Positions 1-60,079 of a stretch of DNA of 64,000 bases are shown one piece after another. Position 1 is the first letter of the stretch. Each line of letters opens with the position of its first letter. The translations under genes were made by a program, and so were the position numbers. The DNA is from Blasia pusilla. Its lineage: Eukaryota. The notes beneath the pieces were generated by a model. That model did no database searches and was not told the origin of the DNA. It saw nothing but the letters and a program-made list of their open reading frames with translations. The stretch lies in NCBI GenBank assembly GCA_050084515.1, contig CM114271.1, positions 9,114,001-9,178,000 of the forward strand, given 5' to 3'.

Positions 1-573
1 TTTTTCATGAGTTGAGACGGATCATGCGACCGATAGCTCCCGGTTGGGAGTATCTCGGTAGTCACATCACCGAGTCGTATGATGTACTAGTTGGAGGAGC
101 AATATTGTACCCGATGGGTTTTCGGATGGATTCTTGGATCGAGACAAGCGTCTTCTTGAGACCATGTTGGCAGTCCGGGATGGACGTATGAGCCAAGTTC
201 TGTGAGATTTATTTCGGGGCTCGACCAGAGGGTCTTCCCCAACAAAGTGTTAGCATCTGTGGGCTGGTTTTAGTGGAGTAGTCACTTGGCCAGGAGACTT
301 TTGGAGGGTAATGTTTCTGCTATGGATTCTCCTGCGCATGAGGAGGTAGAGGAGGTCCCTATTTTTGCAGCATCCTCATCGTTGGATGTGCCACTTTGGA
401 GTTCAGGCAGTGCACTACGGCAGGAGGCTAATCGCCTAGTGCAGGAGGCTTGGTGTGAGGCTATTATACCTCACGAGGAAGAGGAGGCCCCACGGCGGAC
501 TCCTACTTCTGGTCCAGTTGGGTTATCCCCTTTGGATACTGCATCCATTGTATGGCAGTATCCGCAGGAGGGT

Positions 574-1520
574 ATTTGTGTGTTAGATCTCTTTGGTGGG
601 ATTAGCACTGGTTTGGCTGCAATGTTGCAGGCCGGTATTCCTGTGTGGAGATACGTGTATGTGGAGCGAGATGAGACGGCCCAGAGAGTCTCATCTCGAC
701 ATATTGGTCAGTTGATGCGGAGATACCCTGAGTTGTTGCCGCCATCAGGTATTCGTGGGTACCAGCGTGCTTTACCATCACACATTGCATTGTTGGGGGC
801 GCAGGACCTTGAGAGGGTTGGTCCTGTGGATTTGGTGATTCTTTGGATGGCCATGTCGTGGTCATACACGTCTTTGGTCGTGGTGAGGGATTACATGACC
901 CTAGGTCTCGATTGTTTTGGGAGATGTTACGGGTGTTACGACATCTTCAGGTTCATCGCACACGTGCTCTAGCTTACATTCCGAGAATGTTCCATTGTTG
1001 GGTGACACTCGACCCGGATGATGGCGAGTGTTCATGAGGTGCGGTCTTGGATTGGACCAGCGGTGTTGTTGAATGCAGCGAGTTGGCTCAGCGTGCACAT
1101 CGCCCACGCTTGTGGTGGACAAACTTGTTGCCTAGGGAGGTTCTACGTCGAGCATATGATGCAAAGGCGGGATCCTCGCCTTACGTGGATAGTATCTTGA
1201 TCTTTGGGCGACTTTCTCAAGTGGTGAGGGTTATTGATCGGTCACCCATGGCGGTGGTGAACCGTGTGGGCACCCTAGGATGGCACTACCCACATTGTGA
1301 GTTTTCCCGCGTCACATGCCTACAGGGAAGGTGGCCCCGGGCTTGTATGGGATTCTCATGTGCGCGGCGGTTGGTGGAGCCTAACGCGATGAGAGAGAGC
1401 GTCGATGGGATTTACTATCGGGCGTGTGGCGGTTGCTTCTATTTCGAGGCTTCATGACGTCATGTGTTGGGTCGGGCCATGGACCTGAATTGTTTGACTT
1501 GGATTTTGAGTCTTGGTATG
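574..1520 (+). pseudogene. DNMT3-like C5-cytosine DNA methyltransferase domain within the gypsy polyprotein (frameshifted)
   Basis: Ordered motifs across frames: I VLDLFGGISTG; II YVYVERD; IV VDLVI/GWPCRG (GWPC 845-856); GLHDPRSRLFWEMLRVL; VI ENV (983-991); VIII HRPRLWWTNLLP; X RHVLGRAMDLNCLTWI (~1458-1505). Confidence 0.9.
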
Positions 1521-1869
1521 GCCGAGCGGCGTCGACTTGGACTATGTCTGTGGGTCTTCCACCCTTGTAATGAGCTCGATGGCTACCGGGGACGGTAGAG
1601 GCATCGGTGGGGCAAGGAGAGTAGTATTTTGCATCCTTGGAGTAAATGGGATGTAATGGTGGGCATGTGGAGTTGGTTGCTCATCTTTGGTGGTGGAGGA
1701 GTTATTTGCTCAGATGATGGTGTAGCTAAGGGTGTACGATCTTGTGAGGGGGTTGCGTAGCGACCAATGGCATCGCCCTCTCCTCTAGTGTGCCGGTGGA
1801 GGAGACTTGGGAGCCATTACTTGGGCCCAAGCTTACGGGAGGTGAGAAACGACGCTGACACAGTTCCTA

Positions 1870-4862
1870 CGTGCTTATAGGAGTTGTTTTGCCTTTAGCA
1901 TGAAGGAGTTGGGTTCTCTGGTTGGACCCGGTATACGGATTGATTTGGCTAGTGATACGCCAATCTTCCGTCGTCCCTACCGATATAGTGATATGGAGAG
2001 GGACTTGATTGAGTAGGACGTTGGACCTTTTGGAGGCTGGATTAGTGGAGTTGTCGAATGGAGAGTATGCATCCCACTTTGTCATGCTGCTAAAAAGGAT
2101 ATGCATGGCAACTACACGGATAGGCGGATGTGTGGAGATTACCGTCCTATCAATCGGCAAACCAAGGCCAATAGGTATGCCATGCCTACACCTGAGGAGA
2201 TCTTTGATGTGGTGGGACAAGCAAAGATTTTCAAGATTTTGATCTTGAGGCAGATACCATCAATTGCCGATTCGGGAGAGTGACAAGGCCAAGACAACAT
2301 TTTGGGGTGTCAACTCATGGCAAGGATTGTTTGTACCCGGTGGAAATTCTTACCCTTTGGGTTGAAGAATGCACTGCCGAGTTTCAAAGAGTGATGGGCG
2401 GGATCCTAGCAGGTTGGATTTTGTTCGGTGTTACATTGATGATATCTTGGTATTCAATAACACGGTGGAGGAGCATCAGATACATTTGCAGATGGTGTTT
2501 GAGAGGTTGAAAGCTCATGGTCTACGTTTGCATCCAGGAAAGTGTAAGTTCTTCCATGAGGATGTTGAGTACTTGGGTCATGTGATCTATCCAGGTGGTT
2601 TGGGAGTTCAGCAAGCAAAGGTGGAGGCTATTGCACTTATTCCACGTCCGGTAGATGTGAGTAGAGTTCGAGCATTCATGGGATTGGCGAACTACTATCG
2701 GAGGTATGTGAAGGGATTTAGTGCTATGGCAAAGCCTTTGAACCAATTGCTGAAATCACATCAAGAGTGACACTGGGGAGATGATCAGGAGAGAGCTTTT
2801 GTGGAGCTTAAGGCCTAGTTGGTGGCGGCGCCTATCTTGAGGAGACCTATCAAAGGGCGCCCATTTCAGTTACACACTGATTGGAGTAGGTTGGGACTTG
2901 GAGCGGTGTTGACACAACATGATGATGAGCACATGGAGTTTGTGGTGGCCTATGCAAGTCGTTCGAATAATGCAAATGAGTCGCGCTATATTTCATATGA
3001 GGGAGAGTGCTTGGCAAGAGAGTGTGGGTGGCACACTTTAGGTGTTACTTGTTTGGCACCCAGTTTACCCTTGTTGCGATCACCAACCGCTCAAGTGGTT
3101 GATGGAGTCGGACAAGCTTACAGGGAAGCTTGCACGGTGGGCTCTTATCTTACAAGAGTATGACTTCCAGGTGGTACATAGACCTGGAGTTGCCAACCTT
3201 GATGCTGATGGGTTGAGTAGGAACCTATGTACTAGCCAAGAGGATACAACAGGGGCTAGATGGCATGGCGAGGTTGATGAGGAGATGGTGCCAGGTTGGC
3301 ATGCATCCGCCTTTTTATGTTGGTTAGGGGTGGACTCTAGTATGGAGGACCACGTGATATCTTACTCTAGTCAGAGGGTAGATGGCCAGCCTTCAGATCC
3401 TAAGGTTGGAGATAATGGTACGGATCAGCGTGATATTCATGATGATGCGTTGGTGTTGGAGTTCCTACGGACCGGTAGGGTGCCAGGCATAGTGAGTGCC
3501 AAGGAGCGAGACCGTGTTCTTCAACGTGCTAAGAGGTATCGATTGAGGGAACACATATTCTCAGCGTGTGGGAGGATGGTAGAGTACGTAGTAGTGCCAC
3601 ATTTGGCTCAGAGAGCGCGACAGCGACATGCCCATGAGGAGTTGGGACATTTTGGGGTAAAGCGTACGTATAGCTTACTCCTTGGCCAATATTGGTGGCG
3701 TGGCATGCATACTCAGGTGCAGCAGTTGGTGTCACGTTGTATGGTTTGTGACCGGGTGAGGGCATCATTTAATGCCCCTACACCACAATTACACCCCTTG
3801 CCTATTATGGGGTTGGGTTACCGTTGGAGTGTGGACTTTGCGGGACCGTTACCGTTGACTGTACGACATCATCGATATGTGTTGGTGATGGTGGAGCACT
3901 TCTCCAAGTGGATTGAGTTGGTGGCATTACCGGACAAGGCGAGTGAGGGAACGACGTATGCATTTCTGGATAGAGTGCTTAGTCATTTTGGTGCACCAGC
4001 TGAAGTGCTGACCGACCAGGTCTGAGTTTCAGTGGTGAGTTTCAGGTCTTGTGTGACAAGGCGTTGATTGATCATCGGACCACGTCTCGAGAACATCCGA
4101 GGCGGATGGTTTGGCTGAGCGTGTGGTTCAGACGGTGAAGAGGGCATTGCGCAAGTATGGCCTCTGAAGGGCCATCTTGAGCCAGGATATTTAGTTGCCA
4201 TGGTTAGCCATGGGGTATAGGTTCAGTCGCCAAGCATCCTTGGCTTCCTTCTCACCTTATTTTATGTTATACGGCCGAGATCCACACTTGCCAGCAGCAA
4301 TTCGTCGGGAGTCTAGTGAGGTGGTGAACCTTGATGACCCGAGAGATGTGGATGAGGGTGTGTTCTCAACGAGCGGAGCTCTTTCGGAGAGTTATGCCCA
4401 TGACCTTTGAGAATCTTGCCATTGCTCAACACAGGGATACGTTGCGGTATGCAACCATTCGAGGTGGAGGTTATCGACCATCAATTCGTAGGTTCCATGT
4501 GGGGGACTATGTCTATTTGCAGCAGATTGCCCCAACAACATTGGATGTGACGGCAGGCCGCACTATTTTGAGTCTTGCGAGGTGTTAGCTTCGGAGTTCT
4601 CATGTTGGAGGGTCGTGATGGAGTTGTTTGGAAGGACCATGTGCGTAATTGTGCGCCATGTCATCTTCCAAATGTGGATGGTATCATTGACCCAAGCTTA
4701 GCCATGATATGTGCTAGCTTGAGGTGCATGTTGTGTGGGTCTGTGCGGTAACGGCCCGTATGTTGGTGTGTGATCGGTGTTCTAGGGGTTGGCACATGAT
4801 GTGTTTGACTCCACGTTTGGATGTTGTTCCTCTTTGGAAGGTGGGTTTGTCCTCGATGTACT
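1870..4862 (+). pseudogene. pol: Gypsy pol remnant: RT, RNase H, integrase, C-terminal PHD finger
   Basis: ORF fragments 2009-2242, 2101-2283 (RMCGDYRPIN), 2369-2770 (YIDD), 2819-3163, 3042-4025, 4331-4588; colinear with and similar to 5689-8166. Confidence 0.92.
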
Positions 4863-5036
4863 TAGGAGAGGTAGATGACTTGATCTTTGCATGATATGGA
4901 TTACGGATGTGCGACTAACAATGGGGCAACCTAGCACCCGGCCTTTCGATTCGGGCACCCAAGAAGGTGTATAGCATGTAGTAGATGTATAGGGCTACCC
5001 GGGAGTTAGAGGACCTAACCGCTTGATTAGGGGGCG

Positions 5037-5617
5037 AGTTGTGGTACACTTGCGTTTGTGGATACTCGTCTATGTTATGTACGTATGTGAGTATGGTATG
5101 TCGGCGATGTATGTTGTATGACGATGTGGATTCGCACGACAGCTGTCATGACCATACGGATTATGTTGTAGAGTATAGTGTGCTAGTAGAGGTCATTCCT
5201 TATGTAGGACCGTAGTGGATTGGTAGAGATGCGGTTCCATACATAGGGTTGGGGTTACTCGGTTGGGGTGAGTTTCCCAAAGAGGGGCCCGCTCTTAGGT
5301 TGGAGGATATAAGGTGGAGTGCACTCAAAGAACAGTCACTTCTTTGAGTTGAGCCTGTTGCATTGGGAGTTAGCCTTGGTAGTGAGTAGAGCTCTTGGCT
5401 ATGGTGTTTCCCGCAAGCTTCGACCTAGATTCTCCCATCGTGGAGTGGGTTTGGCTCGATTGTATGTGATTGTAAACGTGTTTTATGACAGTAGGTCTTT
5501 CACGGATTTCAGTTGTGGTACACTTGCGTTTGTGGATACTCTCGTCTATGTTATGTACGTATGTGAGTATGGTATGTCAGCGATGTATGTTGTATGACGA
5601 TGTGGATTCGCACGACA
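5037..5617 (+). repeat. 3' terminal structure of gypsy copy 1: ~106 bp block (5037-5142) repeated at 5511-5618 around a TGTCATG-initiated segment (starts 5144)
   Basis: Near-identical direct repeats AGTTGTGGTACAC...TCGCACGACAG; internal junction GACAGCTGTC; preceded by AGGGGGCGAG. Confidence 0.88.
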
Positions 5618-5619
5618 GG

Positions 5620-8166
5620 AGAGATTGCTTGTATCAGTGGCGGTTCTTACCATTTGGGTTGAAGAACGCGCCTGTAGAGTTTTAGAGAGTGATGGATAGG
5701 ATTCGGGCTCACTTAGATTTTGTACGATGTTACATAGATGATATTCTTATCTTCAGTTCCACGGTTGAGGAGCATGAGCGACACTTGGAGGAGGTATTTC
5801 GGCAATTGCAGTTACATGGATTGAAGTTACATCCAGGCAAGTGCAGATTCTTTCAGGAGCAGATTGAGTACTTGGGACACATCATATATCCGAGTGGGTT
5901 AGGCGTTCAGCAGACGAAGGTAGAGGCTACTGTGCAGATTCCACGCCCTACAGATGTGAGTCGAGTCCAAGCATTTCTTGGACTGGCAAACTTCTATCGA
6001 CGGTATGTCAAGGGTTTTAGTGCGATCGCAAAGTCTTTGACATTGTTGAGGAGACTTGATCAAGTGTGGTTGTGGGGAGATGATCAGGAGCGAGCATTTC
6101 AGGAGCTCAAGGACAGGTTGACGTCCTCACCCATTTTACAGAGACCGGTTAGGGGTCGCCCATTCCAGTTACATACGGATTGGAGCATGTTGGTTCTAGG
6201 AGCAATGCTTACTCAGAGGAATGACAAGGAGAGGGAGTTCGTTGTGGCTTACGCGAGCCGATCGAACAACATTGCAGAGGCGAAGTACAGCTCCTACGAG
6301 GGAGAGTGCTTGGCTGTAGTGTGGGCCGTGGCACATTTTAGGTGCTATTTATTCGGCAACCCTTTCACACTTATCACTGATCATCAGCCGCTGAGGTGGT
6401 TGATGGAGTCCGACAAGCTTACGGGAAAGCTTGCCAGGTGGGCTCTATTACTACATGAGTATGAGTTTGAGGTGGTTCATAGGCCAGGTCGGCTGAACCA
6501 GGATGCGGATGGGTTGAGTCGTAACCCATGTCCGAGTCAGAGAGACGACACAGGAGCTCAATGGCACGGAGAGAGTGATGAGGAGATGGTGCCCGGTTGG
6601 CATGCATCTGCCTATCTTTGTTGGTTGACTACGGCAGGTCATCCACAGGTGATGACTCCAGTGGTGGGGTTGGATGATGAGTCTTTGGATCCGGAGGTTA
6701 GTGAGGAGGCGATAGGTGGTCGTGATATCCATGACGAAGTGGAGGTTGTGGAGTTCTTGCGCACTGGCGTCATTGCGAGTACAGTGAGTGCTAGGGAGCG
6801 GGATCGGATCCTACAGAGAGCCAAGAGGTTCAGGTGGGAGGGGACTCACATTTTTCGGGTATGGGGAGATGGTAGGATACGAGTGGTACCTCATCCTTCC
6901 CAGCAAGCACATGTAGTGCGACATGCCCATGAGGAGTTGGGACATTTCGGAGTAAAGCGTACTTACAGCTTACTCCAGGTTCAATATTGGTGGCACGGCA
7001 TGCATACTGGGCTACTGCAGTTTGTGGCCAGATGTATGGTATGTGACAGAGTGCGAGCATCCTTCAATGATCCCACTCCGTAGTTACATCCTTTGCAGAT
7101 TATCGGTTTAGGTTATCGGTGGAGTTTAGACTTTGCGGGACCTTTGCCATTGACAGGGCGTCATCATAGGTACGTGTTGGTCATGGTGGAGCATTTCTCC
7201 AAGTGGATAGAGTTGGTGGCACTACTAGACAAGGCGAGCGAGGGAACAACTTATGCATTTCTAGATTGTGTGCTTAGTCACTTTGGTGCACCGGCGGAGG
7301 TGTTGACTGACCAGGGTACCGAGTTCAAGGGAGAGTTTCAGGCCTTGTGTGATCAGGCGTTGATAGATCACCGCACCACGTCCAGAGATCATCCTGAGGC
7401 GGATGGGTTGGCGGAGAGAGTGGTACAGACGGTGAAGAGAGGATTGCGCAAATATGGCTTGCAGCGGGGACAGTTGAGGGAGTGGGACCTACAGTTGCCA
7501 TGGTTAGCTATGGGTTATCGCTTTAGTCAGCAGGCATCCTTGGCGTCATTTTCACCGTACTTTTTGCTCTTTGGGAGAGAGCCAGATTTACCTGCAGCGA
7601 CTCGACGTGACATGGCGGAGGTGTTAGATCTTGATGATCCAGATGTGTGGATACAAGCATGTTCTCAGAGGGCAGAAGTTTTTCGTAGAGTTATGCCTAT
7701 GGCCTTTGAGAACTTACCTATTTCCCAGCATAGAGATACATTGAGGTACGCAACCATTCGTGGAGGAGGTTATCGTCTAGGGATTAGGAGGTTTCATCAT
7801 GGAGATGACGTGTATTTACAGCAGGCGGCACCCATGATGCTAGATGTCACTACAGGGCGCACGATCCTACGCGTGCGCGAGGTATTATCGTCCGGAGTCC
7901 TCATATTGGAGGGACGGGATGGTATGGTTTGGAAGGATCATGTGCGTAATTGTGCGCCATGTCATCTTCCGAACATAGATGGGACGGTGGATTCGAGCTT
8001 GGCAGTGGTGCCTGCAGGCTTGAGGTGTATGTTGTGCGGATCTGCGAGGGGTGCAGCCACCATGTTGGTATGTGATGGTTGTTCTCGAGGGTGGCATATG
8101 TCATGTCTGACCCCCCCTCTTGATGTGGTTCCCACGGGACGATGGATGTGTCCGAGATGTGTATAG
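5620..8166 (+). pseudogene. pol: Gypsy pol 3' half (RT-RNase H-integrase-PHD) in a single frame with two in-frame TAG stops
   Basis: ORFs 5485-5685, 5689-7083 and 7093-8166 share one frame; YIDD 5731-5742; integrase SLDFAG/TDQG/AERVVQT; PHD CMLC..CDGC..HMSC..WMCPRC 8026-8160. Confidence 0.93.
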
Positions 8167-8259
8167 GGTGTGTGCGCCCCTTCATGAGTGACTCCCATGT
8201 GTGTTAGATACTTTTGGGACTCTAGTTAGGTGAGTAGAAGGAGCTAGAACAACAATCTG

Positions 8260-8710
8260 CAATTTAAATGGGATCATTGGTGCCATTCGGACCAAGATAG
8301 TGGCAGCTCACATATCGAGTTGGGACAGAAATTAGCTTCATTTGTCCATGCTTACAACTCGGTGAGAAGAGCACCACAGGGAAAAGTCCCTACTTCTTGG
8401 TGTATGGGCGAGAACCCTCTCCCGGTAGTAGAGTTGGAGTTGAAGACTGATCATACTCTAGAAGGGCACTTCCAACCTGAAGGTGGCAAAGATAGCAAGT
8501 GGATATGATTGATGCCCTAGAGGAGGAGAGAAAGGCGACATTAGAGAAGACCAAGGCCGTTCAAAGACCAAAGGAAGATGAGGTTTGATAACCGAATACA
8601 ACATGATCAAAGTGAAGGAGGGGACATGGTCTTTGATGTATGATAGTCGACCCCAAAAGTTTCCAAGAAAGCTACACATTCGATTGTTTAGGCCTTATCG
8701 GGTGAGGAGC
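8260..8710 (+). pseudogene. Integrase C-terminal fragment of a different, non-chromoviral gypsy element
   Basis: WDRKLASFVHAYN...YFLVYG...LMYDSRPQKFPRKLHIRLFRPYRV resembles the C-terminus of ORF 60182-61060. Confidence 0.7.
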
Positions 8711-9020
8711 GGTGAGGAGATCAGTGAGATCAGTGAGGAGCAAAGAGGAAGTAATTATCACCGAGGAGATCAGGTGAGATCGTAAGGAGCGGTGAGGAGA
8801 TCAGGTGAGGAGCGGTGAGGAGATCAGGTGAGATCTGTGAGTGAGAACAGGAAGTAATGATCAGGTGAGAGCAGCAGGAAGTAATTAGCGGTGAGGAGAT
8901 CAGGTGAGATCAGGTGAGGAGCAGCAGGGAAGTAATTATCAGCTGAGGAGCAGCAGGGAGATCAGGTGAGATCAGGTGAGGAGCAGTTGAGGAGATCAGG
9001 TGAGATCAGGTGAGGAGCAC
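8700..9020 (+). repeat. Degenerate short tandem repeat (GGTGAGATCA / GGTGAGGAGATCA / GGAAGTAAT units)
   Basis: Directly visible reiterated 10-13 bp units. Confidence 0.85.
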
Positions 9021-10338
9021 CCAAGGGAATCTCGAACCAGCTTGAGAAGAAGCAAGCTTGGGAAATGCTAGTGAGAACAGGTTGAAGTAGATGAGGTCGA
9101 AATTTCAGGCAGTAGATGCCTTGGAGTAGATGCTTAGGGGGAGGTAGATTTTTAGGAAGGTAGGAACCCAGAATACCAGAGAAGCTCAAGGAAGAAGAGG
9201 GCTCTCAACTTCACTTATAAATACTCTGGTGGGTTTGCTTGAAGGGGCATAGACATCTTTGTTGGCTAGTAGACACTCGATCTCTTGAGCCAAGCTAACC
9301 AAAGACAGTTTTGTGCTCCCAGTCTAGGTAGTGTGTAGTGTGCTTGAAGGGGGCTGAGACTAAGAAGGTCTCTCATGTACTCTATGATTTTGTGATACAC
9401 AGGAGGTAGCCCTGTGAAATGAGTTCACACCATTGCCTTGTATCCGAGTATGTGCATGATTGAGTGATGAGTTGGGGAAGGGCTTGATGTGAAGGAGATT
9501 CTTGGAGATGATTCAACTAATCATTCAAAAGTGCAGGGAGAGGACAAGAGGATCTACCAAGAGAGGGGAGGCAAGCTTGGGTTCCAAGATTGTGCTCCAC
9601 CAAGGTGTGCTTGGAAAGCTTTCATTCGCCCCACCTAAGCTTGGCCTTTGACACCAATCACATGATTACTTCGAGGTGTGACAACTTGGACTTCGGGTCT
9701 GGTAAGTGATAAGAGTTAGTGAGTGGAGAGAGAGAGAGGGTCATGCTTGAGCTCCTGCAGGTAGAAGACCATGGGCTCGGCTGTTAAGTCTCCTACTACC
9801 GAACAAGAAGGGAGAACAGCAGATCAGCAAGGTACGAGGAGAAGAAGAAGGTGATTGCACTACCGATCGGTTAGGAGTCGGGTGTACTTTAGAGGATGCC
9901 TTGGTACATTCAACTAGTCCAAGGCAAAGACATTGGAGGACCTTATCTTTGCCGTGGTCATCCTTGATTTGTGAATTCTAAGTAGAGTGTGCTTGTTGGG
10001 TTCCACTGGCCACTCCACTCAAAGCACTCAAGAGAAAGGAAGGAGTTTTGGTTAGTAGGGTGAGGATAGGATTGTGATCTTGAAGTGGAGAGAGTTCCCC
10101 AGCCTCTTAAGGTAAAGAGGTGGGGTTCTGATGAGTTAAGGAGTATATCTTGCAGATCTGACTTCTGATCTGGCCCTAAGCTCTTACATGGGACCGAACT
10201 GGTGGAACTAGCAACAGTTTCACCTGGGTTATGTGCTGGCCATGTATTACCTGGTGAGACAGGGTGGTAGGTCATATCAGAGAGATGTGATATTTTCTAT
10301 CTAGAGTTGGGGGGATCCAATTGCCAGCTAGGGGGGCG

Positions 10339-11098
10339 GTTGTGTGATCTCCATGTATATGTATGAGTTGATTTTATGTACATATGTGGATCGACCCGTA
10401 TGTGGGAAATATCGATATTGTGTGGTGTAGATGTGACCAACCATGTATGTTGTGTAGCGATATGTATGCGCACGACAGCTGTCACATCTGAGTAGCCGAT
10501 AGGCCGAGATCTATCGTGGATAGGGCGTAGAAGCCAGCGGACTATCTTGAGTGTAACTTTGTCCCACGGTGTCAGATGAGGTTGAGGATAGATCCATTGT
10601 GTCAATAACGTCGTTTCTGACAACTTTCATGTTGAGGTCTTTTACAGCCGGGTGACTTGTTAACCAGGTCACCCGTCCCTGGTAACCTCTGCGCGTAGGT
10701 TACCAAGGGGAGGGATATTTTTAGGGGAAGAGCCTTTTGGCTCTTCCCAACCCTATATAAGAGAGGAAGATGGATTTCCTAAGCCATCTTTCTCATGTTG
10801 GGCCGTTGGAGCACCTCCCTTGTATGTGTGTGAGCTAGGACTAGGGTGCTAGCGTCCGGATTCCTTTATAGCACAGGGTGGACCAGGCTCGATATGCCGA
10901 TGTAGATTGAGGAGTGGAGTTTTAGGCCGGGTGTGCCATTTTTACTACTCTTTACTTTTGTTGTGTGATCTCCATGTATATGTATGAGTTGATTTTATAT
11001 ACATGTGTGGATCGACCCGTGTGTGGGGAAGATCGGTGTTGTGTGGTGTAGATGTGACCAGCGATGTATGTTGTGTAGCGATATGTATGCGCACGACA
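10339..11098 (+). repeat. 3' terminal structure of gypsy copy 2: 139 bp block (10339-10477) repeated at 10960-11098 around a TGTCAC-initiated segment (starts 10480)
   Basis: Direct repeats GTTGTGTGATCTCC...GCGCACGACA; junction GACAGCTGTC; preceded by AGGGGGGCGG; TATATAA at ~10754. Confidence 0.88.
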
Positions 11099-12999
11099 TG
11101 GGTCAGCAAGAAGCAACCTACATGGTTTGCTGTCGTTGTAGCGTTGGAGTAGAGTGACATGCTCTGTCCTCTTATTCTCCTTGATGCAAGATTTGGTGTA
11201 CCGGGTCATAGACTGTTGCCAATGGAAAGCATCCGACCTTTCCCTCTCTGGTTGAACCTTTCCACCCCAGAACACTTCCCTGATAGCAATCCACCCAGGT
11301 TGTGCATTGTCCGCCATGAATCCATAAATTTCCGAAGATGGCCTTTTGTTTTCCTTCACCACCTCCAGTAAGAGTAACCAACACATCTTCAAACTGCCAA
11401 CGTTATCTGCTTTTATCTCACAGACAAATATAGTTTTGAGTCCCTTCTCCACATGGTCATAAATGTGAGCACCCATGGTCAACCATCCATTCAACACTCT
11501 ATAGCAAATATCAAAGCTTACCCAGCTACCGTAAAGATCTTCCCCTTCCTTCATTCGATCTATAAGATCGAGGCCACTCAACGGCCCTGTCGTTGATATT
11601 TTGAAGACATAAGCCCTCGATCCTTTCCCTCTCTGGCCCATGAATTGACATCTCTAAATAAATGGAAATTTGGAGTTGGCCTTGATTCTGGAAATGGCAT
11701 CTATTTCAGCCGTCTTTCCATCCAGTACCCGCATTTAATGGAGCAAATTCCGGAAGCATTCAGGATTAGCGAGAAATGCGAGATTTTCCCATAGTTGTTT
11801 CTCCTCAGAAGCCGTGATCTCGCCCTACCCAGGGATTCCAAGCAATTGTTCACAAATTTGTGATATTGTTGTAAACTTGATCAGTCTGGGCTTTGATCTC
11901 GGAGAGTTTCTATATACCTCGGCCACTTTCTTTGCCACATCCTCTTGATGTGTCTCTGAATTGCACCGGTAACAAGATGAATGTGGAAGCCAACATGAAC
12001 TGCGAGCTTGGTGTACTCGGACGTAGAACTGAAGTCGTGCACAATGAAAAATATCTATGCAGGACACGCTCCAATGTAGAAAGGGGATGCCTGACAATGA
12101 GGACATCGATGGCCTCACGACGGTATGGTCGCACTGACCTCATATGGAGTTTTTGCATTCTTAGGAGGGAATTGCAACGTATTGACTCGCCCATTGCGCT
12201 CTAGAAACGGGCAGCCTGGACTTCTACACTCCATAGCTCCAATACATTGGTGGCGAGAAACAATCCAAGGACCATTTGGAATTGAAGCACTAGTTCGTTG
12301 AAGCCTGCACCATCGATGACAATCAGACTTTCTATCCATACCCTTCAAGCATTCTCCATCTTTCTTTTGAGCAGGACCAGCAAGTGGAGGCAACTCAAAA
12401 ATGCAATTACCATCGTACGTGGGTAGCATCTCGTCCACAAAAATATGCTTGAACATTTTAAAGGGAAGAGACGACATCAAAATATTTCCTGATACTCGCA
12501 AGAGGAACGAGTAGGCAGACACAAGGCCCGGTTGGAGTCCGACAGATCCACGTAGGTTGACGACATCCGGAATGTCTTCAGGAAGTACAACATTGTTACA
12601 AACGTGTGAAGTTGGAGTTGATGCCAAATCTACTAAGCAGGGAGTGGAAAACGTAGAGCTCGGTGCACTAAGAAATTTCGGACCGTCTACTTGGGAAACA
12701 GAGGAATTCAGAGGCAAGCCATAAACTCTGTATTCACCATTTTTTAGAGGTAGGAGATTCCATACTTTACAGTCTGCTATCATTGGCTGGAGTGTCTCAC
12801 CTACAACGTCCTCCGTATCGTCCATCCTAACATCCTTGGAAACAAAGATGGTTCCAATTTGGGGAAGAAATTGCACTGAGAGGAAATTTTCATCCACTGG
12901 TATGTAAGACTCACGAGCTTGCGGTCGAATTATTTTTGATTGAGGAAGGGTCGCTAGATGATTGCCACAAGTGAGTGTCACATAATTATCCATTCCCAA
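11099..12999 (-). pseudogene. MULE-type DDE transposase, N-terminal Cys/His-rich region and catalytic core (frameshifted, cut by the gypsy insertion)
   Basis: WVSFD...FMADNA...ERSDAFHWQQSM (D, D and C/DxxH signature) in ORF 10952-11641; CIGAMECRSPGCPF in ORF 12115-12999. Confidence 0.78.
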
Positions 13000-25638: not shown

Positions 25639-28600
25639 TTACACAATACGACAAATACTTCCTTTTTGTCCAAGAGGAGGTACAAGCCTGTTTAACAAGT
25701 CCAAGGTCCTGCGACGTCTTGACCAATGTGAACCATTCTTTTGAATCATAAACATAGTACACCCCAACCAATACTCTTTTTTTGCAACTCTTGCCTCCAC
25801 TGCAAGTTGTGTCTCTTTTCCCTTCCTTTTCTTTGACTTTGTTGATATTGTGGAAGGGCCAACATTTGCTGTAGATTCAAACAAAATTGCAATATCACTA
25901 CCAACATCAACCAAACAAGTTGGGCAATTAGGATAACGTTTCTTTCCCTTACCAGTAGTGTAATAAGTCTTTTGGGCTATTCGAGTTAGTCTATCCTTTG
26001 ACATGAAAGGATTGCAAGACAACTGACTTACAAGGATGGATTTATAGATAATCTTGCCCTCATAAATTACAATAGGCACTATTGCATGGGGAATTGCCAT
26101 ATTAGTGAGTTCTGCTTGAACAGATGCAAACACATGCCTTAGTTCATGTCCTAATACCTCCATTTCAATAGATTTGGGATCAATGTCAATATCTATCTCT
26201 TCGTTATCTATTATGAAAGGTACATTGATATCACAACTTTCCTCTACAACCCAAGAATCAATATGGTTCAAATCTTCCTCAAGGTCCTCAAACTCTAAAA
26301 ACTCCCCAATTGGGTGCTCATATATTGGAGACACTATTGTGGATCGGTTATCTTCATGTTCTTCAACATCATCACATGACAGTACTTCCCTTATTGAAGC
26401 TGAATGAGGCCATGTCTCGGCCTCCACATCCCATGGATGCATCCACCACCTTCTCTTTGCAATTGGCAAGGAACTCTTTGGAGACATGTTCAACAACCTC
26501 AAAAGCTCTTTTGCTGCATCCAACCCTTCTTTAAGAGCATCAACAACCAACTCATTAGTCCCAACCAATGAATGATCAAATAGATTCGGAGCTTGGTCTC
26601 CTTCACCAAGAGGATGCAGTTTTGCCCAAATATGATCTTGCTTATGATGTGAACAACGTATCTTTAATCCTTCTGGTCCATACTCTAGGACAGCCAATCG
26701 ATTCACTCCTACTGCACTATCCAGTAGAGATCCAAAGTCATAGTTTCTTTCATGACCACTCATGCCAACTACCTTGCTGAAAAAAATCTCACAACAATCA
26801 GATCCTAGCAAGTGAAATGGAACTTGAAGATATGGAAACTCGTCTCGAAATGCACAAACTAAGAGTATAATGAAATGGCAAGACATGTTGATATCATGGA
26901 AAGCTTGAATAGAGATCATATTTTTTTTGGTGACACATCCTGTATTCCCTGTCACATAATGGTCACCGTACTTCAACCATAGCCTCCACAAACGGAGAAA
27001 CCAAGATACCTTAGATGCCAATACTATACGAGTTCTCAAGTCATGCTTCACAGAGAAGAAAATGTCGATGTAATCTGCACAAATCTCAAGGTACAACTTA
27101 GTCCCAAAACTTCTATCATGTCGAACATCTTGCCGCTCAAACATGTGGTGTAGGCAGGCTTGCACTCTCCTAGATGCTATCCGTTGTGGGCCAGCCCAGT
27201 TTTGTCTGTCTGTCCAATTCACATCATCCTAGTTCAAGCCATGCTCCTCAATTTTATAGTGGTTATAAATTGACGTCACATAGGACAACGATGCATGTTG
27301 GTCACCAAGCACTAGCATGGCAGCACATCTGTCAAATGGGTTAAAAGCCTTTTTCCCATTGTGGGATGGATCTTGGTCTCCAAAGCCATACAAGTCTCCA
27401 TTTGGAAGAATGGACACAAAATACTGCCACCCTTCCCACCCTACTTTATACCTTGGAAAAGAACCATTCATACCAATATAATCTTCCATCATTAATTTCC
27501 TACGACGAGCATCACCATCACTAGCATGCCCCAATAAAGGGCCAACATTGGCTCTACAATATTCATCCCACATGGATTTCGGCTGCACCCAATGTTCCCT
27601 CACCCAATCTGCTTTGAATCGATTACAAGTTGCGGTGGCACAAAGCGCCAATTTTGGCATTTTCTCATGCAAAGGATTCACAATTACTACTCTAGCATAC
27701 ATACCTTTCGCATATTTCTTAAAAGTACTCACAATTTTATCATACCCTTCAGTACCTTCCCCAACAAGTACTTCCAAGCCAAAAGAGCATGTATGTTCTT
27801 CCGAGGGACCACAAAAACCAATAAGCGTGTCATATTTAGCCTCCCATCTATCACAACAGTTGTATCAAATTAGAACATAAACCCAATATAAAACAATAAA
27901 CATGACATATAAATGTGCAAAGTAATATAATCATTATGTTAGTGCATATCCATACATATATCAAGGCCAACTTTCTCCAGAGATTCAAACACACCTTGGC
28001 CTTTCTTTTATCCTTGTTTCATCCTCAACGAACATTACAGGCACATCTCCCTCGATTCTAAGTAGTTATTTTGATGCAAATAGTACTTGGGAGACCTCTT
28101 GAAATATCTCTTTTTGTAGCCCAACTCTAAAGGGTGGTAGTTTTGCTCTGTCACGTTTCAAGGTCTTCAGACTTGGCCCTCCCAAGTTTTCCGAAAGTAG
28201 TGGGCAACTTGTCGGCCACCAAACTGGAACATGGCTTGGGAAAAGGCTTTGGTTCTCTTACTGTAACGATAACCATTGGCCACTCTCTGCAAATTCTTAG
28301 CCACATATTTCAAGAAATCCCACAACCCCTCCTTACCAACAAATGCCCCATCCCTATGTCCATTTACTATGTTCTAGAGAAATGGTCTCAAATCTTTCCT
28401 ATCTGCAACTACTCCTAACATGTCTTCTAGCTTCTTTCGCCTAGTACTCAAGGCACAAATCCTTTGTGATTGTTGTGCCAAAAGCCAAAGTTTTCTCCTA
28501 AATAGAGTGTTCAATTTTCCCACATGCTCCCTCAACTTTGTCTTGGTCAAGTACTTCATGGCCATCCCTCTTTGAGTTGTCCTGCCTCCTCTATGCACTA

Positions 28601-30038
28601 AAGCTTCCGCTTCCCTGTGCACCCGACCACGAAAATCATCCTCCCGCTTAATGGAGTCACAATGACTACAAGTGAGGTTCTCAAACCCTCCCCCATTACT
28701 TGACAATCTAGAGCAAAGCTTGTGCCTAAAACAACCTTGTATACATACAATTGACCTACTACTTGGATTGAACACTTGCGCTGAAGTGGTAAGCTCACAA
28801 TCCCAAATAGTTCCTCCTGTCTGATCATCTAGTATGGCCTTCACATCCATCAACTCTCCTCTCCATTGTACGTTTGACTCCCATAAGCCCCAACAAAGCA
28901 AACTTAGTCCAAAATCAATGGAGGAAGCAAACCCACCTTTTCCTAAACTGCTTCCTTCCTTGAAGGCATCAGGGTTAAGGAATTTGGTAATGGAATTTTG
29001 AGACGGAAATAAGTCCCTAGGATCTGCCTTCTTTGGTCTTTCCTTCTTCCCAGACCTCAAGGCAAGTTGGGCAGTGATCTCTCTAGTGTCAAGAGCATCC
29101 AAGTGATATCGACTAACCAACTATTGTCGTAGATTATGCTCCAAATTGGCCTTTCTTGGGCACATGTCTGTGTGCAACTTGCCACAGATTATACATCGTA
29201 CCTTGAACAGGTATGACTTGTGTGCAAACTGCATATCAGCAATAGATGGCATCATAGAGAACACTATTGTCTCACCCCCAACCTCTACATTCATTTTCTC
29301 AACTATTCCTAAACCTACGGTGATATGATGTTCATGATCCCATTGAGGTTGTTGTATAATGTCACTGGGAGAAATCAATGTACTAGGCAGACCCCGTCTC
29401 TTACAAAAATTCTCCTTGTGCTTAGGGTTGTTGAGATGCTTAGTCTTATAATTGTTGAAGCAATTTGCAATTGATTTTAAAAATTGGGAATTAGTTGCAT
29501 TCCCATAAGTCTCCCGACACTCTAAGCACTCTAGGTGCCCTCGGACATCTTGCCCCTCATCCCAAGTTCGCACTCTCCACTTATGCTCATCATATCCTTG
29601 TCGCTTTACCCAATCTTTAAGCTTGCTCCACTCCTCATTCCAACTCTTTCCTGCCACCTCAAACATAAGCAGTGACTCAAATGAACCTGTGACAGGCAAT
29701 GTATCGACTACTTGCTCTTGGGTTGTGGCTTCTGTATGTGATTGAGACCCAACATTTGTGTCCTCCATGGTAGACACAATAGCAGCAGATGAATGCGAGG
29801 ACACAATTGCAACCCCCCCAATACATCTAGAGGCTTGTTGTGCAATCACAAAAACACTCCCTTCAAGTTCACTAATCTCAATGAGGTTCTCAATAGGATG
29901 TCTAACTCTACCAGGTAGCCTATCATCCCAAAAATCAAATTTAAAGTCAACTGCCCTAGCACATCGAGTGCGGAAGTCGGCCAGTGTTTGTCCTTCTTTG
30001 AAGGACAAACACAAAAATTGGTACATCATCCTTCCCAT
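25639..30038 (-). pseudogene. P-element/THAP9-like DDE transposase with N-terminal zinc-finger-like regions (in-frame stops, probable intron ~27870-27960)
   Basis: VPVMFVEDETRIK (~28050-28010), DTLIGFCG, GHASDGDARRRK, DQDPSHNGKK (DxxH), DRQN, GSDCCEIFFS; ORFs 29121-30038, 28374-29120, 27229-27777, 25639-27222. Confidence 0.75.
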
Positions 30039-30433
30039 CCTTTTCTACTAGTCTCACTGAGTTGGAACTGGGGTTTGCCATTTGTACAAGGTATCAAAGG
30101 CATTCAAACTATCATATACGTAGTTCAACCTGTCATGTACCACAACAATAAACAAAAGAGGTCACAAATCAAGGTTTGTTATGCTTCTACAACAATTGAT
30201 AGCCATGCATAACATCAAATAACTATCCTCATTCAAACTTCAAGACTTAATCCATTTAATTCATTACAACCCAATCAAAACGTCCATTCAATATGAGTTA
30301 TAGTTTTGAGTCTGAAGATGCAAAACTCCTGAAAACATAAAGGTAATTTGTGCAAAATCTTACACGTGAAATATGTAATGAGACTATAGTCCCATTGTGC
30401 TTACCTACAAAATTTCTCTATCGTATTCATTAA

Positions 30434-31129
30434 TTAAACCCAAGAGATATGTTGATAATCTACAATGCCTAGTGTGGGGACAATTGGATGATCAGGGCAA
30501 TAGATCATCCATCTGATCTCATTATGTGCAACATGACGCCAAGATTCTCTGCCAGGTGCAAAACCTTCCTCCTTGCTCGCTACCAAGCAACCCAAATGCC
30601 ATGTCTTTGGACATCTCAAACATTGGACGACCTTTGCTAGATGCTCGTTGCGATGCGGCATGTTGCATGCCACACATGTATGGAGAAGGCAACACTGCAC
30701 ATCAAGTGGCAAACATCCATGATAGAAGAAACAAACACAGAAAGGTTGGGGGCACTGTCTTATATTAGTTTGAATGGAAGCCATTCTACCACACTTGAAA
30801 CATTTGTATGTCCCGGAGGTACACTCTGGATAATACCAAGGGTCGCTCACCTTGTCCTTTGGAATGACCACAACAGGGCAATGAGACACCGTCTGGCCAA
30901 CTTTATGAACATGGTGAAATTGTCGATGGCAAAGCCCATCACAAATCACTGGATCTCCATGCAAATCGCAAATAGCACACAAATGAGGACTGCATTGTCG
31001 CAACTCAATATCTGAGAATAAGGGAATTTGTGGCAACATCATGCTCATGTTCTTCCTAGAGAGTGGATTATTCTTGGCTTGCCCCTTGTATCTTGCCGTT
31101 ATGGCTACTAGACATTTAAACATGGACAC
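30434..31129 (-). CDS. Tandem PHD-type zinc fingers (NSD/EDM2-like arrangement); probably the last exon of a spliced and possibly decayed gene
   Basis: CAICDLHGDPVICDGLCHRQFH..C..WYYPEC; CFKC..CPQPFCVCFFYHGC; CLLHTCVAC..QCLRCPKTWHLGC..IYCPDH. Confidence 0.78.
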   Translation of the reverse strand: MSMFKCLVAITARYKGQAKNNPLSRKNMSMMLPQIPLFSDIELRQCSPHLCAICDLHGDPVICDGLCHRQFHHVHKVGQTVSHCPVVVIPKDKVSDPWYYPECTSGTYKCFKCGRMASIQTNIRQCPQPFCVCFFYHGCLPLDVQCCLLHTCVACNMPHRNEHLAKVVQCLRCPKTWHLGCLVASKEEGFAPGRESWRHVAHNEIRWMIYCPDHPIVPTLGIVDYQHISWV

Positions 31130-38234: not shown

Positions 38235-38322
38235 GCGCTGGAGGCGGCACTTTCGTCCTTGCAAGGGGAGTCAGGGAAGACTTAGAAGTTTCGTGTCCTT
38301 TTGAGGGGAAGGTTGAGGAAGA

Positions 38323-48773: not shown

Positions 48774-48810
<37 letters not shown>

Positions 48811-59749: not shown

Positions 59750-59881
59750 GAAAATACCCGCTTGGTTGCGACGGAACGCTTTTATAGTTTGCTCCCCCTG
59801 TCAGTTCTTGGTCGTGGCGCCGGGGCTGTAACAAGAAGGTTGGCACTTCGCGTCTTTGCCCCGCTCCAACAACTTCGTGCG

Positions 59882-60004: not shown

Positions 60005-60079
60005 AACAAAGCGTTCGCCTACCCCCTTCCTCCTCTTTCAGTCCGCATAAGGTTCGGGCTCATAATAACCGCGCACATG

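Follow-up and report, generated by a model that had tools for sequence, protein, structure and literature searches.

How a retroelement with a DDE integrase is copied and inserted when its 3′ terminus consists of a block B, a block A and a second copy of B, with a palindrome at the first joint, is the question raised by this locus. The window, that is, the whole stretch of DNA analysed, comprises 64,000 nucleotides of Blasia pusilla (GenBank assembly GCA_050084515.1, contig CM114271.1, positions 9,114,001 to 9,178,000 of the forward strand) and contains two elements of this kind, E1 and E2.

Two nested elements and their coding regions

On their sequence, E1 and E2 are nested retrotransposons of Ty3/gypsy type and plant type (Table 1). 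Both of them, as well as a related element in locus L025, show the Pfam domain order RVT_1, RT_RNaseH(_2), Integrase_H2C2 and rve, and in the window ORFs and L025 the integrase C-terminus shows a PHD finger (PF00628) in place of a chromodomain. Positions 2325-4859 of E1 align with 5623-8160 of E2, with 73% identity over 2566 nt. The insertion site of E1 in the reverse transcriptase (RT) region of E2 is the point before 5618, placed there because DNA contigs of other copies depart from the window sequence before this position. E2 contains in addition a private insertion; contigs and RNA reads of other copies pass over 8164-10268, where RNA depth is about 0. After 11098, at the 3′ end of E2, the contigs of other copies diverge from one another (agreement 0.56).

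The region of E1 upstream of the RT contains an ORF (274-972) with 58-64% identity to PF00145-bearing polyproteins of Marchantia, Calypogeia and Sphagnum (E values down to 8e-69), one of which also contains RVT_1 and RNase H. The Pfam scan of this window ORF itself gave no match, and L025 shows a weak match to PF00145, of 20.4 bits, under the cut-off of 22. By these comparisons, the polyprotein has a predicted C5 cytosine methyltransferase domain upstream of the RT. The closest named relatives belong to the liverwort Calypogeia (81% identity), and proteins of Klebsormidium nitens are found among the relatives of the integrase-PHD region (53-54% identity). The best explanation is an old lineage of bryophytes and charophytes, which would encode gag, a DNA methyltransferase, RT, RNase H and a DDE integrase with a PHD finger.

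Table 1. Features of E1 and E2 in the window (position 1 is the first letter of the window).
Feature	Position	Strand	Description
E1 body	1..5028	+	5′ side cut by window start; several frame breaks
E1 body, decayed DNA-methyltransferase region	274-1457	+	Upstream of RT, RNase H and DDE integrase
E1 body, Pfam domains	within 1..5028	+	RVT_1, RT_RNaseH, Integrase_H2C2, rve
E1 polypurine tract	5029..5038	+	AGGGGGCGAG; read directly; adjoins B1
E1 B1	5039..5141	+	GT-rich; end CACGACA
E1 palindromic joint	5138..5147	.	GACA-GC-TGTC; B end, spacer and A start
E1 spacer	5142-5143		GC, 2 bp, between B1 and A
E1 A2	5144..5511	+	LTR-like, TGTCA...TTTCA
E1 A2, TATA	5308-5312	+	
E1 A2, hairpin	5323-5348		CTCAAAGAAC...TTCTTTGAG
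E1 single G	5512	+	Same as last base of purine tract
E1 B2	5513-5617	+	End CACGACA, 3′ end of element
E2 body from mid-RT on	5618..10329	+	RT, RNase H, DDE integrase and PHD finger ending at 8166 (Pfam)
E2 private insertion	about 8167-10266		2.1 kb, inside 5618..10329
E2 polypurine tract	10330..10339	+	AGGGGGGCGG; read directly
E2 B1	10339..10477	+	
E2 palindromic joint	10474..10483	.	GACA-GC-TGTC
E2 spacer	10478-10479		GC
E2 A2	10480..10959	+	Read directly
E2 A2, motif	10754-10761		TATATAAG, then inverted repeat AAGATGG...CCATCTT
E2 B2	10960..11098	+	3′ end of element

Architecture of the 3′ termini in the window

Direct reading of 5029-5617 confirmed the order described for E1 by a sequence-only reading: a purine tract, B1 ending in CACGACA, GC, an A block starting with TGTCA, and B2. 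The same layout with the same 10-bp palindromic junction, which had been reported for 10330-11098, is found in E2, with A and B blocks that differ from those of E1. The B lengths had been given as 106 bp and 139 bp; the second holds for E2, and the B blocks of E1 are in fact of 103 and 105 nt. B1 and B2 show 97% identity in E1, with one mismatch and a 2-nt indel, and 93.5% identity over 139 nt in E2. In a comparison of the two elements, the similarity of B is confined to its last 35-40 nt (83-85%), though the bodies align as given above, and the sequences therefore indicate a layout conserved while the A and B blocks diverged.

The sequence GACAGCTGTC has exactly two occurrences in the 64 kb, both at the B1/A joint; with up to one mismatch, shuffles give 1.83 matches, so that the count alone is not significant and it is the position that matters. 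The sequence GCACGACA occurs four times in the window and closes each of the four B blocks (shuffle expectation 1.05; 3 of 100 shuffles reach four). No further copies of either A or either B were found in the 64-kb window. A motif homologous to the hairpin in A2 of E1 lies 19-20 nt past the TATA in 14 of the 19 A copies of the E1-like family.

Transcription in the host species

Raw reads of two RNA-seq runs of the host species were mapped to the window, using bins 217 nt wide. The family is transcribed in this species, and first mates on the minus strand are 10-100 times commoner than on the plus strand. RNA depth stays level (101-167) between the integrase end and the 5′ half of A, a stretch that takes in the purine tract, B1 and GC, and reads of E2-like copies span B1-GC-A; B1 and the palindrome therefore lie inside the transcript. 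Depth falls 2-3 fold from 5351 on. A pile of 25 read starts at 5305, upstream of the TATA, probably marks copy divergence. RNA joints from 4989 to 5084 and from 5461 back to 5173, without splice signals, are represented by 4-9 reads each.

Termini and target duplications of related elements

The window contains no 5′ end of these elements. Relatives of the window elements, in which such ends were sought, were loci fetched from metagenome contigs (80 loci). Downstream of the integrase-PHD ORF, 25 of them show B-NN-A-B, which corresponds to 18 independent insertion sites, and the two window elements come on top of these. The independent 3′ ends are of two forms: 18 B-A-B and 16 single-B. The spacer NN is always purine-pyrimidine, mainly GC and otherwise AC, GT or AT, which are transitions from GC. 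Some families keep only GACA-NN-TGTC of the palindrome, and in a relative of other source, with an integrase identity of only 46%, CGACAGCTGTCA is kept about 230 nt past the purine tract. The first B block, whose absence from most copies had been named as evidence against the arrangement, starts directly at the purine tract at every classified 3′ end; it is A2-B2 that is missing from many copies. Some A2|B2 joints retain 1-4 tract bases: G, AG, CGAA or CGAG.

The layout is kept in E1, E2 and their relatives while the blocks diverged, which agrees with the earlier view of a conserved architecture and not a chance duplication. The CA-NN-TG motif resembles a fossil circle junction, and the extra B-GC could be taken for the passive relic of one ancestral copy, either tandem-LTR or circle-derived, which plays no part in forming the ends. 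Such an origin is very improbable: the layout persists across families with integrases just 46-77% identical to that of E2, B1 and B2 are 82-97% alike within every element while B differs between families, and the insertion ends are located at the B1-GC-A2 joint. Moreover, B2 must be rebuilt in each cycle, because a transcript that ends in A2 could not serve as a template for it.

All the independent 5′ ends of the relatives (13/13) show A alone. A 5′-terminal B-A-B, the other outcome named as speaking for an ordinary LTR with internal repeats, was found in none of them, and neither was the mirror form A|B-GC-A-body-B (0/13). B was also sought in the 9-10 kb of upstream sequence of the five D-form loci in which A1 was found (four elements), without any match. 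Two identical long terminal repeats are absent, the 5′ end being A only and the 3′ end B-GC-A-B or B. There is thus next to no room for an ordinary LTR element, in which B-GC-A-B or A-B would be the LTR, with an internal duplication at both ends. The B of the E1-like family does start with (T)TG, end with CA and come after the purine tract, as such an LTR would. However, besides the 13 5′ ends without B, the primer-site-like sequence adjoins A and not B, the target duplications lie directly outside the A start and the B2 end, and the L052-like family has a B start ATACATG and an A end TTCAAT, which show neither TG nor CA.

Integrated copies start with TGTCA and end with CGACA. The target duplication, whose place the sequence-only reading had asked for, flanks the A start and the B2 end and is a perfect 4-bp repeat in 8 of the 11 full-length copies (AAGG, CATA, TTTA, ACTA, TACA, TCCC, CATG and ATGG); of the others, one agrees at three of the four bases, another requires an A start of TCTCA for a match, and L014 shows none. 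A 4-bp duplication is the signature of a DDE integrase and not of a tyrosine recombinase, and together with the Pfam matches to rve and Integrase_H2C2 it upholds the assignment to a DDE-integrase family. Because the duplication flanks the TGTCA...CGACA unit, the sequences of these copies establish that a DDE integrase inserts DNA beginning at the A start and ending at the B end.

B1-A2-B2 had been called typical of Ngaro/PAT elements, and correctly so: A1-body-B1-A2-B2 is the split-direct-repeat layout (passages of PMC4157794). This shared repeat order, A1...B1-A2-B2, also given in a figure legend of PMC5890265, would fit a DIRS/Ngaro-type element inserted as a closed circle by a tyrosine recombinase. 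Hardly any credence can be given to it, since the 34 window ORFs and 13 L025 ORFs (at least 80-90 aa, from decayed copies) show no tyrosine-recombinase domain, and a DDE integrase (rve), TG...CA ends and 4-bp target duplications are present.

The single-B copies come from short-read metagenome assemblies and could partly be due to assembly collapse of the B-A-B loop. The same insertion in different assemblies (0.1-6% diverged) keeps one form, in six B-A-B groups and two single-B groups, a comparison with too little power on an origin of single-B by deletion from B-A-B. The best explanation is that A1-PBS-body-PPT-B1-GC-A2|B2 would be the genomic form able to replicate.

Three sets of candidates were rejected. 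L063, from the B-pair screen, is a false positive which shows neither a purine tract nor a CA-NN-TG context. L077, where 1932-2135 is repeated at the contig end, was discarded as a head-to-tail tandem or circle: nothing else repeats, and its 1499-aa ORF without Pfam domain also counted against that reading. A scan of viral_contigs with the 16-mer CACGACAGCTGTCATG gave eight loci, all chance matches: neither block A nor block B is present in any of them, nor is a relative of the integrase, and the integrase alignment against viral_contigs gave no relative.

Putative primer site

A primer-site-like sequence adjoins A1, and the purine tract adjoins B1 and not A2. Visual inspection downstream of A1 and of B1 revealed no tRNA-type primer site and no TGG start. 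In every copy of the L052-like family (6/6), 12-13 of 13 bases at the A1/body boundary can pair with a segment 32-36 nt past the TATA, each score being reached by at most 6 of 500 shuffles. L025 shows 16 of 16 complementary bases and a duplex energy of -23.9 kcal/mol, which none of 300 shuffles reaches. Duplex energy beats shuffles in only five of 11 copies (L025, L052, L023, L014 and L073); it is weak in L058 (12 of 300 shuffles) and L049 (44 of 300), and it is not above chance in L035, L027, L007 and the second element of L016, all of them decayed. The complementarity to a segment about 27-36 nt past the TATA would allow Tf1-type self-priming of the minus strand, with a transcription start predicted from the TATA position only, and A appears to combine promoter, R and U5 in one complete unit. 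The self-priming model does not account for a further feature of the E1-like family, in which the sequence that follows A1 also repeats part of the R region in direct orientation (TGGGAGTAGTT).

Possible routes of end formation

Because the 3′ end is B-A-B while the 5′ end in relatives is A only, this integrase-bearing family does not seem to fit textbook LTR copying and insertion. The sequence-only reading had suggested a non-canonical generation of ends, which the positions of the purine tract, the primer site and the insertion ends support; the mechanism inferred here would rest on the same positions.

In the reading that we favour, at slightly less than an even chance, the cDNA ends would be joined and the integrase would then open the DNA at the palindrome. 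The plus strand would start at the purine tract, at the first base of B, and with a minus strand self-primed at the A1 boundary, ordinary reverse transcription would give a linear cDNA, (B-GC-A)-PBS-body-PPT-(B-GC-A), whose ends (B start and A end) would differ from the insertion ends. These two ends would be joined, A end to B start, either by ligation, giving a two-repeat circle, or by a plus strand which, having reached the 5′ end of the minus strand, continues on the already complete 3′ end of that strand. The A2|B2 joint would thereby be made anew in each cycle, so that B1 and B2 would evolve together, and tract bases kept at A2|B2 joints would be expected, because the joint would be made from the plus-strand 5′ end. 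The integrase would open the built-in palindrome CA^GC^TG, in the duplex with CACGACAGCTGTCAT, and cuts after each CA would give two recessed CA-3′OH ends with 5′-GC overhangs, that is, already processed ends, to be inserted 4 bp apart. The RNA would carry along the intact B1-GC-A2 joint, on which the following cycle would be templated. A-body-B copies, with a single A and a single B, would be dead ends, derived from cuts at both junctions of unjoined cDNA or from a later B1 x B2 deletion.

Besides the uneven support for self-priming, the missing mirror form counts against the favoured reading: random opening of a two-repeat circle predicts the mirror form as often as A-body-B-GC-A|B. Its absence from the 13 5′ ends would therefore require that the choice of junction is biased, that the joint is directional, or that the mirror form collapses faster. 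The further claim, that insertion from end-joined (circular) cDNA, opened by the DDE integrase at a genome-encoded palindromic junction, would be obligatory, is put forward tentatively, at clearly less than an even chance.

The missing mirror form is predicted if no ligated circle is made and the plus strand, at the A end, switches to the finished minus-strand 3′ end, the B start. B would be copied up to an integrase nick at CA^GC, giving A-body-B-GC-A|B, and a failed switch with two junction cuts would give A-body-B, which are precisely the two forms observed (at 18 and 16 independent 3′ ends); the mirror form would not arise because the minus strand would be finished long before a plus-strand 3′ end exists. 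This switch rests on the same purine-tract and primer-site evidence as the favoured reading. However, it still requires an integrase nick internally, 100-200 bp from the DNA end, and the mirror form, with its longer A repeats, may collapse faster, while short-read assembly could hide such copies. It is unlikely.

A smaller chance, low in itself, is given to reverse transcriptase alone making the ends, with both DNA primers at the palindrome. An RNA 3′ end ...GACAGC, from an RNase H cut of a self-complementary GACAGCUGUC duplex, would act as primer for both strands, with minus-strand synthesis starting on the B side and plus-strand synthesis on the A side; the cDNA would be born as A...B and the integrase would only trim GC. 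Tf1 RNase H is reported to cut an RNA-RNA duplex during self-priming, and if this lineage self-primes, its RNase H must be capable of the same. Both insertion termini map to one RNA point, the B1-GC-A2 joint; its palindrome comprises 10 nt, and in the E1-like family GTCATGAC lengthens it. However, priming at the palindrome gives no account of B starting exactly at the conserved purine tract, nor of A ending just as exactly at the complement of the predicted RNA 5′ end, and it leaves the regeneration of A2|B2 and the tract bases at some joints unexplained; the B end is not purine-rich, and the palindrome is reduced to GACA-NN-TGTC in some families.

Comparison with known systems

The core observation is not wholly new. 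KnitGypsy-Dnmt3 of K. nitens (de Mendoza et al., 2018; PMC5890265) has a Gypsy polyprotein that includes a cytosine DNA methyltransferase, and a figure legend of that paper ascribes to it the repeat structure of DIRS elements, which is given elsewhere in the paper as A-coding region-B-A-B. The elements described here resemble it in the DNMT-bearing Gypsy polyprotein and in the A-coding-B-A-B layout, and differ in their bryophyte-type host. In section 9 and the related passages of that paper, KnitGypsy-Dnmt3 is presented without termini, target duplication, junction sequence, primer sites or mechanism, so that the layout is noted there without analysis, and among the literature covered by the search this 2018 legend is the only mention found of the architecture.

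PAT and Ngaro show split direct repeats with the B1-A2 joint internal and downstream of the enzymes (passages of PMC4157794), and general texts place split repeats with tyrosine recombinases and direct LTRs with DDE integrases (passages of PMC8557442). The window lineage shares with PAT, Ngaro and VIPER the repeat order A1-B1-A2-B2 and an internal copy of the joined ends; however, they have a tyrosine recombinase and no target duplication, whereas the window lineage has a DDE integrase, TG...CA ends and a 4-bp duplication. In mosses and club-mosses, elements of the Tcn1 clade are predicted to self-prime (passages of PMC6317226). As in Tf1/sushi and Tcn1, the putative primer site lies by the 5′ repeat and would be complementary to the element's own transcript start and not to a tRNA, whereas those elements have ordinary identical LTRs and a chromodomain, and the window lineage has split repeats and a PHD finger.

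The integrase of foamy virus cleaves the palindromic LTR-LTR junction of 2-LTR circles to give 3′-processed ends (passages of PMC1180852), and HIV-1 integrase shows the same junction cleavage in vitro (passages of PMC1905944). The window lineage has a similar CA-spacer-TG palindrome of abutted ends. The retroviral junction is formed by ligation and belongs to a debated side path, whereas that of the window lineage is element-encoded, with a spacer of 2 bp, and would have to be used. Bacterial IS3/IS30-type elements transpose through a circle with abutted ends, a few bp apart, by means of a DDE enzyme; they are DNA transposons without reverse transcription, and the likeness is by analogy only.

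Significance

A DDE-integrase lineage with split repeats, present in liverworts, mosses and Klebsormidium, breaks the textbook pairing of repeat type and enzyme. The DNA ends expected from reverse transcription differ from the inserted ends, and therefore the use of an internal junction of abutted ends as the normal substrate of a retroviral-type integrase, the question debated for retroviral 2-LTR circles, becomes directly testable. If insertion from end-joined cDNA is indeed obligatory, this would be a eukaryotic retroelement operating like the circle junction of bacterial IS elements, cleavage of an LTR-LTR-type junction could be a productive route, here the sole one, and split direct repeats would have been reached independently by DDE-integrase and tyrosine-recombinase retroelements. 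For the annotation of bryophyte genomes, LTR finders which need two identical terminal repeats will miss such elements or set their bounds wrongly, and the single-B copies have no terminal repeat whatever. Many 'DNMT' and 'PHD' gene models of Marchantia are parts of such elements, which affects their interpretation.

3' ends of the two nested elements

E1 and E2, two nested Ty3/gypsy-type retrotransposons with E1 inserted in the reverse transcriptase (RT) of E2, both show a 3' end composed of a purine tract, a block B (B1), a dinucleotide, a block A (A2) and a second block B (B2). The sequence-only reading had described this as a B-A-B terminus with a palindromic junction, and both its blocks and its coordinates are confirmed. 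The sequence GACAGCTGTC is found twice in the window, each time at a B1/A joint, and GCACGACA four times, once as the close of each B block; for the latter, shuffled sequences give an expected count of 1.05 and reached four in 3 of 100 cases. The bodies of E1 and E2 are 73% identical and their B blocks are alike only in the last 35-40 nt; therefore, the layout is conserved while the sequence drifts, as the sequence-only reading had proposed. The likeness of B1 and B2 is kept within each element, and no further copies of A or B blocks are present in the 64-kb window.

Features of the window, with positions on the forward strand
Element	Feature	Positions	Remarks
E1	Decayed cytosine DNA-methyltransferase region	274-1457	upstream of RT
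E1	Purine tract	5029-5038	AGGGGGCGAG
E1	Block B1	5039-5141	CACGACA at its end
E1	Spacer	5142-5143	GC
E1	Block A	5144-5511	TGTCA at its start; single G after
E1	Block B2	5513-5617	97% identity to E1 B1
E2	Stretch between PHD finger and purine tract	8167-10266	2.1 kb, private to the E2 copy
E2	Fragment within the private stretch	8248-8420	resembles C-terminal part of another gypsy integrase
E2	Purine tract	10330-10339	AGGGGGGCGG
E2	Block B1	10339-10477	GC after
E2	Block A	10480-10959
E2	Inverted repeat AAGATGG...CCATCTT in block A	10765-10795	just 3' of TATA box
E2	Block B2	10960-11098	93.5% identity to E2 B1
	Sequence directly after E2	11126-11859	repeated at 48559-49317 (87%)
	Large ORFs without Pfam match	25639-31144 (minus strand), 38317-42448	one with weak PHD match
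	Further gypsy-type element	58445-64000 (minus strand)	RT, RNase H, rve

Both elements encode RT, RNase H, an H2C2 zinc domain and an rve integrase core, and E2 shows a PHD finger at the end of its coding region (Pfam). The 3' end of E1, at 5617, lies within the RT of E2, and contigs of other E2-like copies differ before 5618. Region 274-972 of E1 has no Pfam match of its own and shares 58-64% identity with PF00145-bearing (cytosine DNA methylase) polyproteins from Marchantia, Calypogeia and Sphagnum, one of which also carries RVT_1 and RNase H. Many relatives of the methyltransferase region are annotated as "hypothetical" or "DNA (cytosine-5)-methyltransferase" host proteins. The integrase-PHD part has relatives with 81-83% identity, including a named one in Calypogeia fissa, and shows 53-54% identity to relatives of Klebsormidium nitens. 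In other copies, both the DNA contigs and the RNA reads pass over 8164-10268, where the RNA depth is about 0. The inverted repeat in the E2 A block parallels a hairpin in the E1 A block. Between 1 and 10000 the element sense strand is T-rich, with a GC skew of +0.23 to +0.30. Among the differences between copies in the read data, C>T and G>A prevail (about 150-180 places each versus about 30 for most transversions), as expected from decay of methylated cytosines. The window as a whole is a nest of retroelements.

Transcripts across the 3' end

Two raw-read RNA-seq runs labelled with the host species gave 2142 and 2555 reads placed at a likeness of at least 85%; most of these show 90-99% likeness and hence stem from other copies. 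First mates are far commoner on the minus strand, which corresponds to sense RNA in most stranded libraries. Depth in the two runs is 134 and 150 at 4700-4916, 101 and 167 at 4917-5133 (purine tract and B1), 116 and 167 at 5134-5350 (GC and the 5' half of A), and 50 and 62 at 5351-5567. In E2-like copies, reads cross B1-GC into A, and loose read ends are found behind 10485 and 10489 (58 and 88 reads). The level depth and the crossing reads indicate, therefore, that B1 and the palindrome are transcribed in the 3' region and that the RNA has no major end in B1; a transcript end within A2 would be consistent with the fall in depth beyond the hairpin. Two rare RNA joints, a 94-nt skip over the purine tract and the first part of B1 (4989-5084; 6 and 5 reads) and a 289-nt jump back inside A (5173-5461; 4 and 9 reads), occur in no DNA contig and may stem from variant copies or from template switching.

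3' ends of related loci

For the scan of metagenome contigs, 15 aligned integrase-PHD proteins served as query; 80 loci (L-numbers) were kept from 556 confirmed relatives, and blocks were mapped with A and B sequences from 25 termini (E <= 1e-8). Directly after the integrase-PHD ORF, 25 of the 80 loci show B-NN-A-B, NN being the 2-nt spacer. A single B is found in 18 loci, and 37 are unclassified: the contig stops short, blocks are not recognisable, or the case is odd (L020, L024, L054, L072 and L077). Grouping by shared 3' flank gives 18 independent B-NN-A-B insertion sites and 16 single-B sites; in two of the latter (L056 and L062), B is followed by GC, and the end may be a B-A-B terminus that was disrupted. 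Loss of the first B block from most copies, which would have spoken against the sequence-only reading, was not found: B1 follows a G-rich purine tract in every classified copy. The spacer is GC, AC, GT or AT, purine-pyrimidine throughout, consistent with GC plus transitions in decayed copies. L077 (3-2720 and 3500-3760), a distant relative from another source with 46% integrase identity, has a 905-aa ORF end that is intact, and its purine tract is followed by a B of about 230 nt and then the exact 12-mer CGACAGCTGTCA; no B2 was found in the following 5.8 kb. The ORF end contains a PHD finger followed by a weak Tudor-like match, and 204 nt of the integrase region are repeated at the contig end.

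5' ends and target duplications

Eleven full-length copies, four B-A-B and seven single-B, and two extra 5' ends (the second element of L016, and L031 on the minus strand) provide 13 independent 5' ends, and all 13, when checked for B-A-B, consist of A alone. No match to B is present in the 9-10 kb upstream in five B-NN-A-B loci (four elements) with the 5' A block (A1) found, and one contig from a host-species run shows the A start preceded by unrelated sequence. Therefore, the element is A1-body-B1-NN-A2-B2, not B-A-B at both ends.

Four-bp flanks of the full-length copies
Copy	3' end	Left	Right	Remarks
L025	B-A-B	AAGG	AAGG
L035	B-A-B	CATA	CATA
L052 (= L066)	B-A-B	TTTA	TTTA
L023	B-A-B	GCAT	ACAT
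L007	single B	ACTA	ACTA
L027	single B	TACA	TACA
L049	single B	TCCC	TCCC
L058	single B	CATG	CATG
L073	single B	ATGG	ATGG
L069	single B	TGTG	TGTG	only with A start read as TCTCA
L014	single B			without match

The inserted unit starts with TGTCA and ends with CGACA, and a perfect 4-bp target duplication flanks 8 of the 11 full-length copies (chance match, 1 in 256); neither a tyrosine recombinase, among the ORFs scanned, nor duplication-free insertion was seen. Together with the rve domain, the duplications and termini speak for a DDE integrase, as had been assigned, acting on DNA tipped by the A start and the B end.

Predicted boundaries of reverse transcription

The A block contains a TATA box. 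In the L052-like family, a 13-nt stretch at the A1/body boundary shows complementarity to a segment located 32-36 nt 3' of this box in 6/6 copies (12-13 of 13 bases; each score reached by at most 6 of 500 shuffles), and the match is a genuine inversion outside the palindromic core TTCTAGAA (AGTTTTT versus AAAAACT). In the E1-like family, A shows CTCAAAGAAC-ATAG-TTCTTTGAG from 19-20 nt after the TATA box (14 of 19 copies), and the body after A1 starts with CTCAAAGAACT. In L025, 16/16 bases pair with a duplex energy of -23.9 kcal/mol, reached by 0/300 shuffles; the energy beats shuffles in only 5 of 11 copies and is not above them in four decayed E1-like copies. We read this as putative Tf1-type self-priming at a predicted transcription start. 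Tf1/sushi elements are known to self-prime, and the same is predicted of the plant Tcn1 clade of mosses (PMC6317226). In the E1-like family (L025 2018-2050 and 10509-10570; same in L027 and L028), the segment after A1 also repeats the R-region pieces CTCAAAGAAC and TGGGAGTAGTT in direct order, with about 20 nt missing between them, which simple self-priming does not account for. The predicted minus-strand start would be the A end and the predicted plus-strand start the B start. At some A2/B2 joints, 1-4 purine-tract bases are retained (G, AG, CGAA or CGAG), and the L052-like joint retains the initial 3 bases of the complementary segment.

Proposed formation of the ends

Standard reverse transcription of a transcript that extends from A1 into A2 would yield [B-GC-A]-PBS-body-PPT-[B-GC-A], where PBS is the predicted minus-strand primer site after A1 and PPT the purine tract before B1. 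The inserted form would be a permutation of this product: the A2/B2 joint would correspond to the two cDNA ends joined, and the insertion ends would lie at the internal CA-GC-TG. If GACA^GC^TGTC were cut after the CA of each strand, the two resulting ends would each have a recessed CA-3'OH and a 5'-GC overhang, the products of normal 3' processing made at both ends at once. Joining of cDNA ends followed by integrase cleavage is proposed tentatively, at slightly short of an even chance, from the arrangement of the blocks; a variant of it without ligation is judged unlikely. The difference between predicted reverse-transcription ends and insertion ends supports the earlier suggestion of non-canonical end formation. 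B2 lies outside an RNA ending in A2, so it would be rebuilt each cycle, which would explain the likeness of B1 to B2 inside an element (82-97%) and their divergence from family to family; A1/A2 identity is 88-92%, similar to the B1/B2 identity of the same elements.

The mirror form, A/B-GC-A-body-B, is found at 0 of 13 5' ends, and the full-length single-B copies show a plain A 5' end in 7/7. Random opening of a two-repeat circle predicts the mirror form as often as the standard one, so its absence favours directional making of the joint, in which the plus strand, on reaching the 5' end of the minus strand, could continue onto the latter's 3' end, completed by then. A biased choice of junction would also fit, and it is possible that mirror forms were lost by faster collapse, their A repeats being longer. 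Single-B copies may reflect cutting of both junctions of unjoined cDNA, later B1 x B2 deletion or, in part, assembly collapse; the form of the same insertion is identical across different assemblies in 8/8 groups, a test of low power.

Relation to known elements

Bacterial IS circle junctions are an analogy to the joined-ends junction. The foamy-virus integrase cuts the palindromic LTR-LTR junction of 2-LTR circles to give processed ends (PMC1180852), and HIV-1 integrase is reported to act similarly in vitro (PMC1905944). The split-repeat Gypsy architecture is already noted in one legend: that of Fig. 4c in de Mendoza et al. (2018; PMC5890265) gives KnitGypsy-Dnmt3 of K. nitens a DIRS repeat structure with Gypsy domains. 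The DIRS layout is written elsewhere in that paper as A-coding region-B-A-B, and its available text adds nothing on this architecture beyond the legend. In the literature searched, the name KnitGypsy-Dnmt3 was not found in other papers, nor were, for this lineage, its termini and target duplications, the CA-GC-TG joint that it conserves, the discrepancy of the predicted reverse-transcription ends with the integrase-set ends, the predicted self-priming site, or its two genomic forms and bryophyte spread. General accounts link split repeats to tyrosine recombinases and direct LTRs to DDE integrases (PMC8557442). The repeat order of these elements is, as had been proposed, the one described for PAT/Ngaro (PMC4157794), and their enzyme and insertion footprint are those of Ty3/gypsy.
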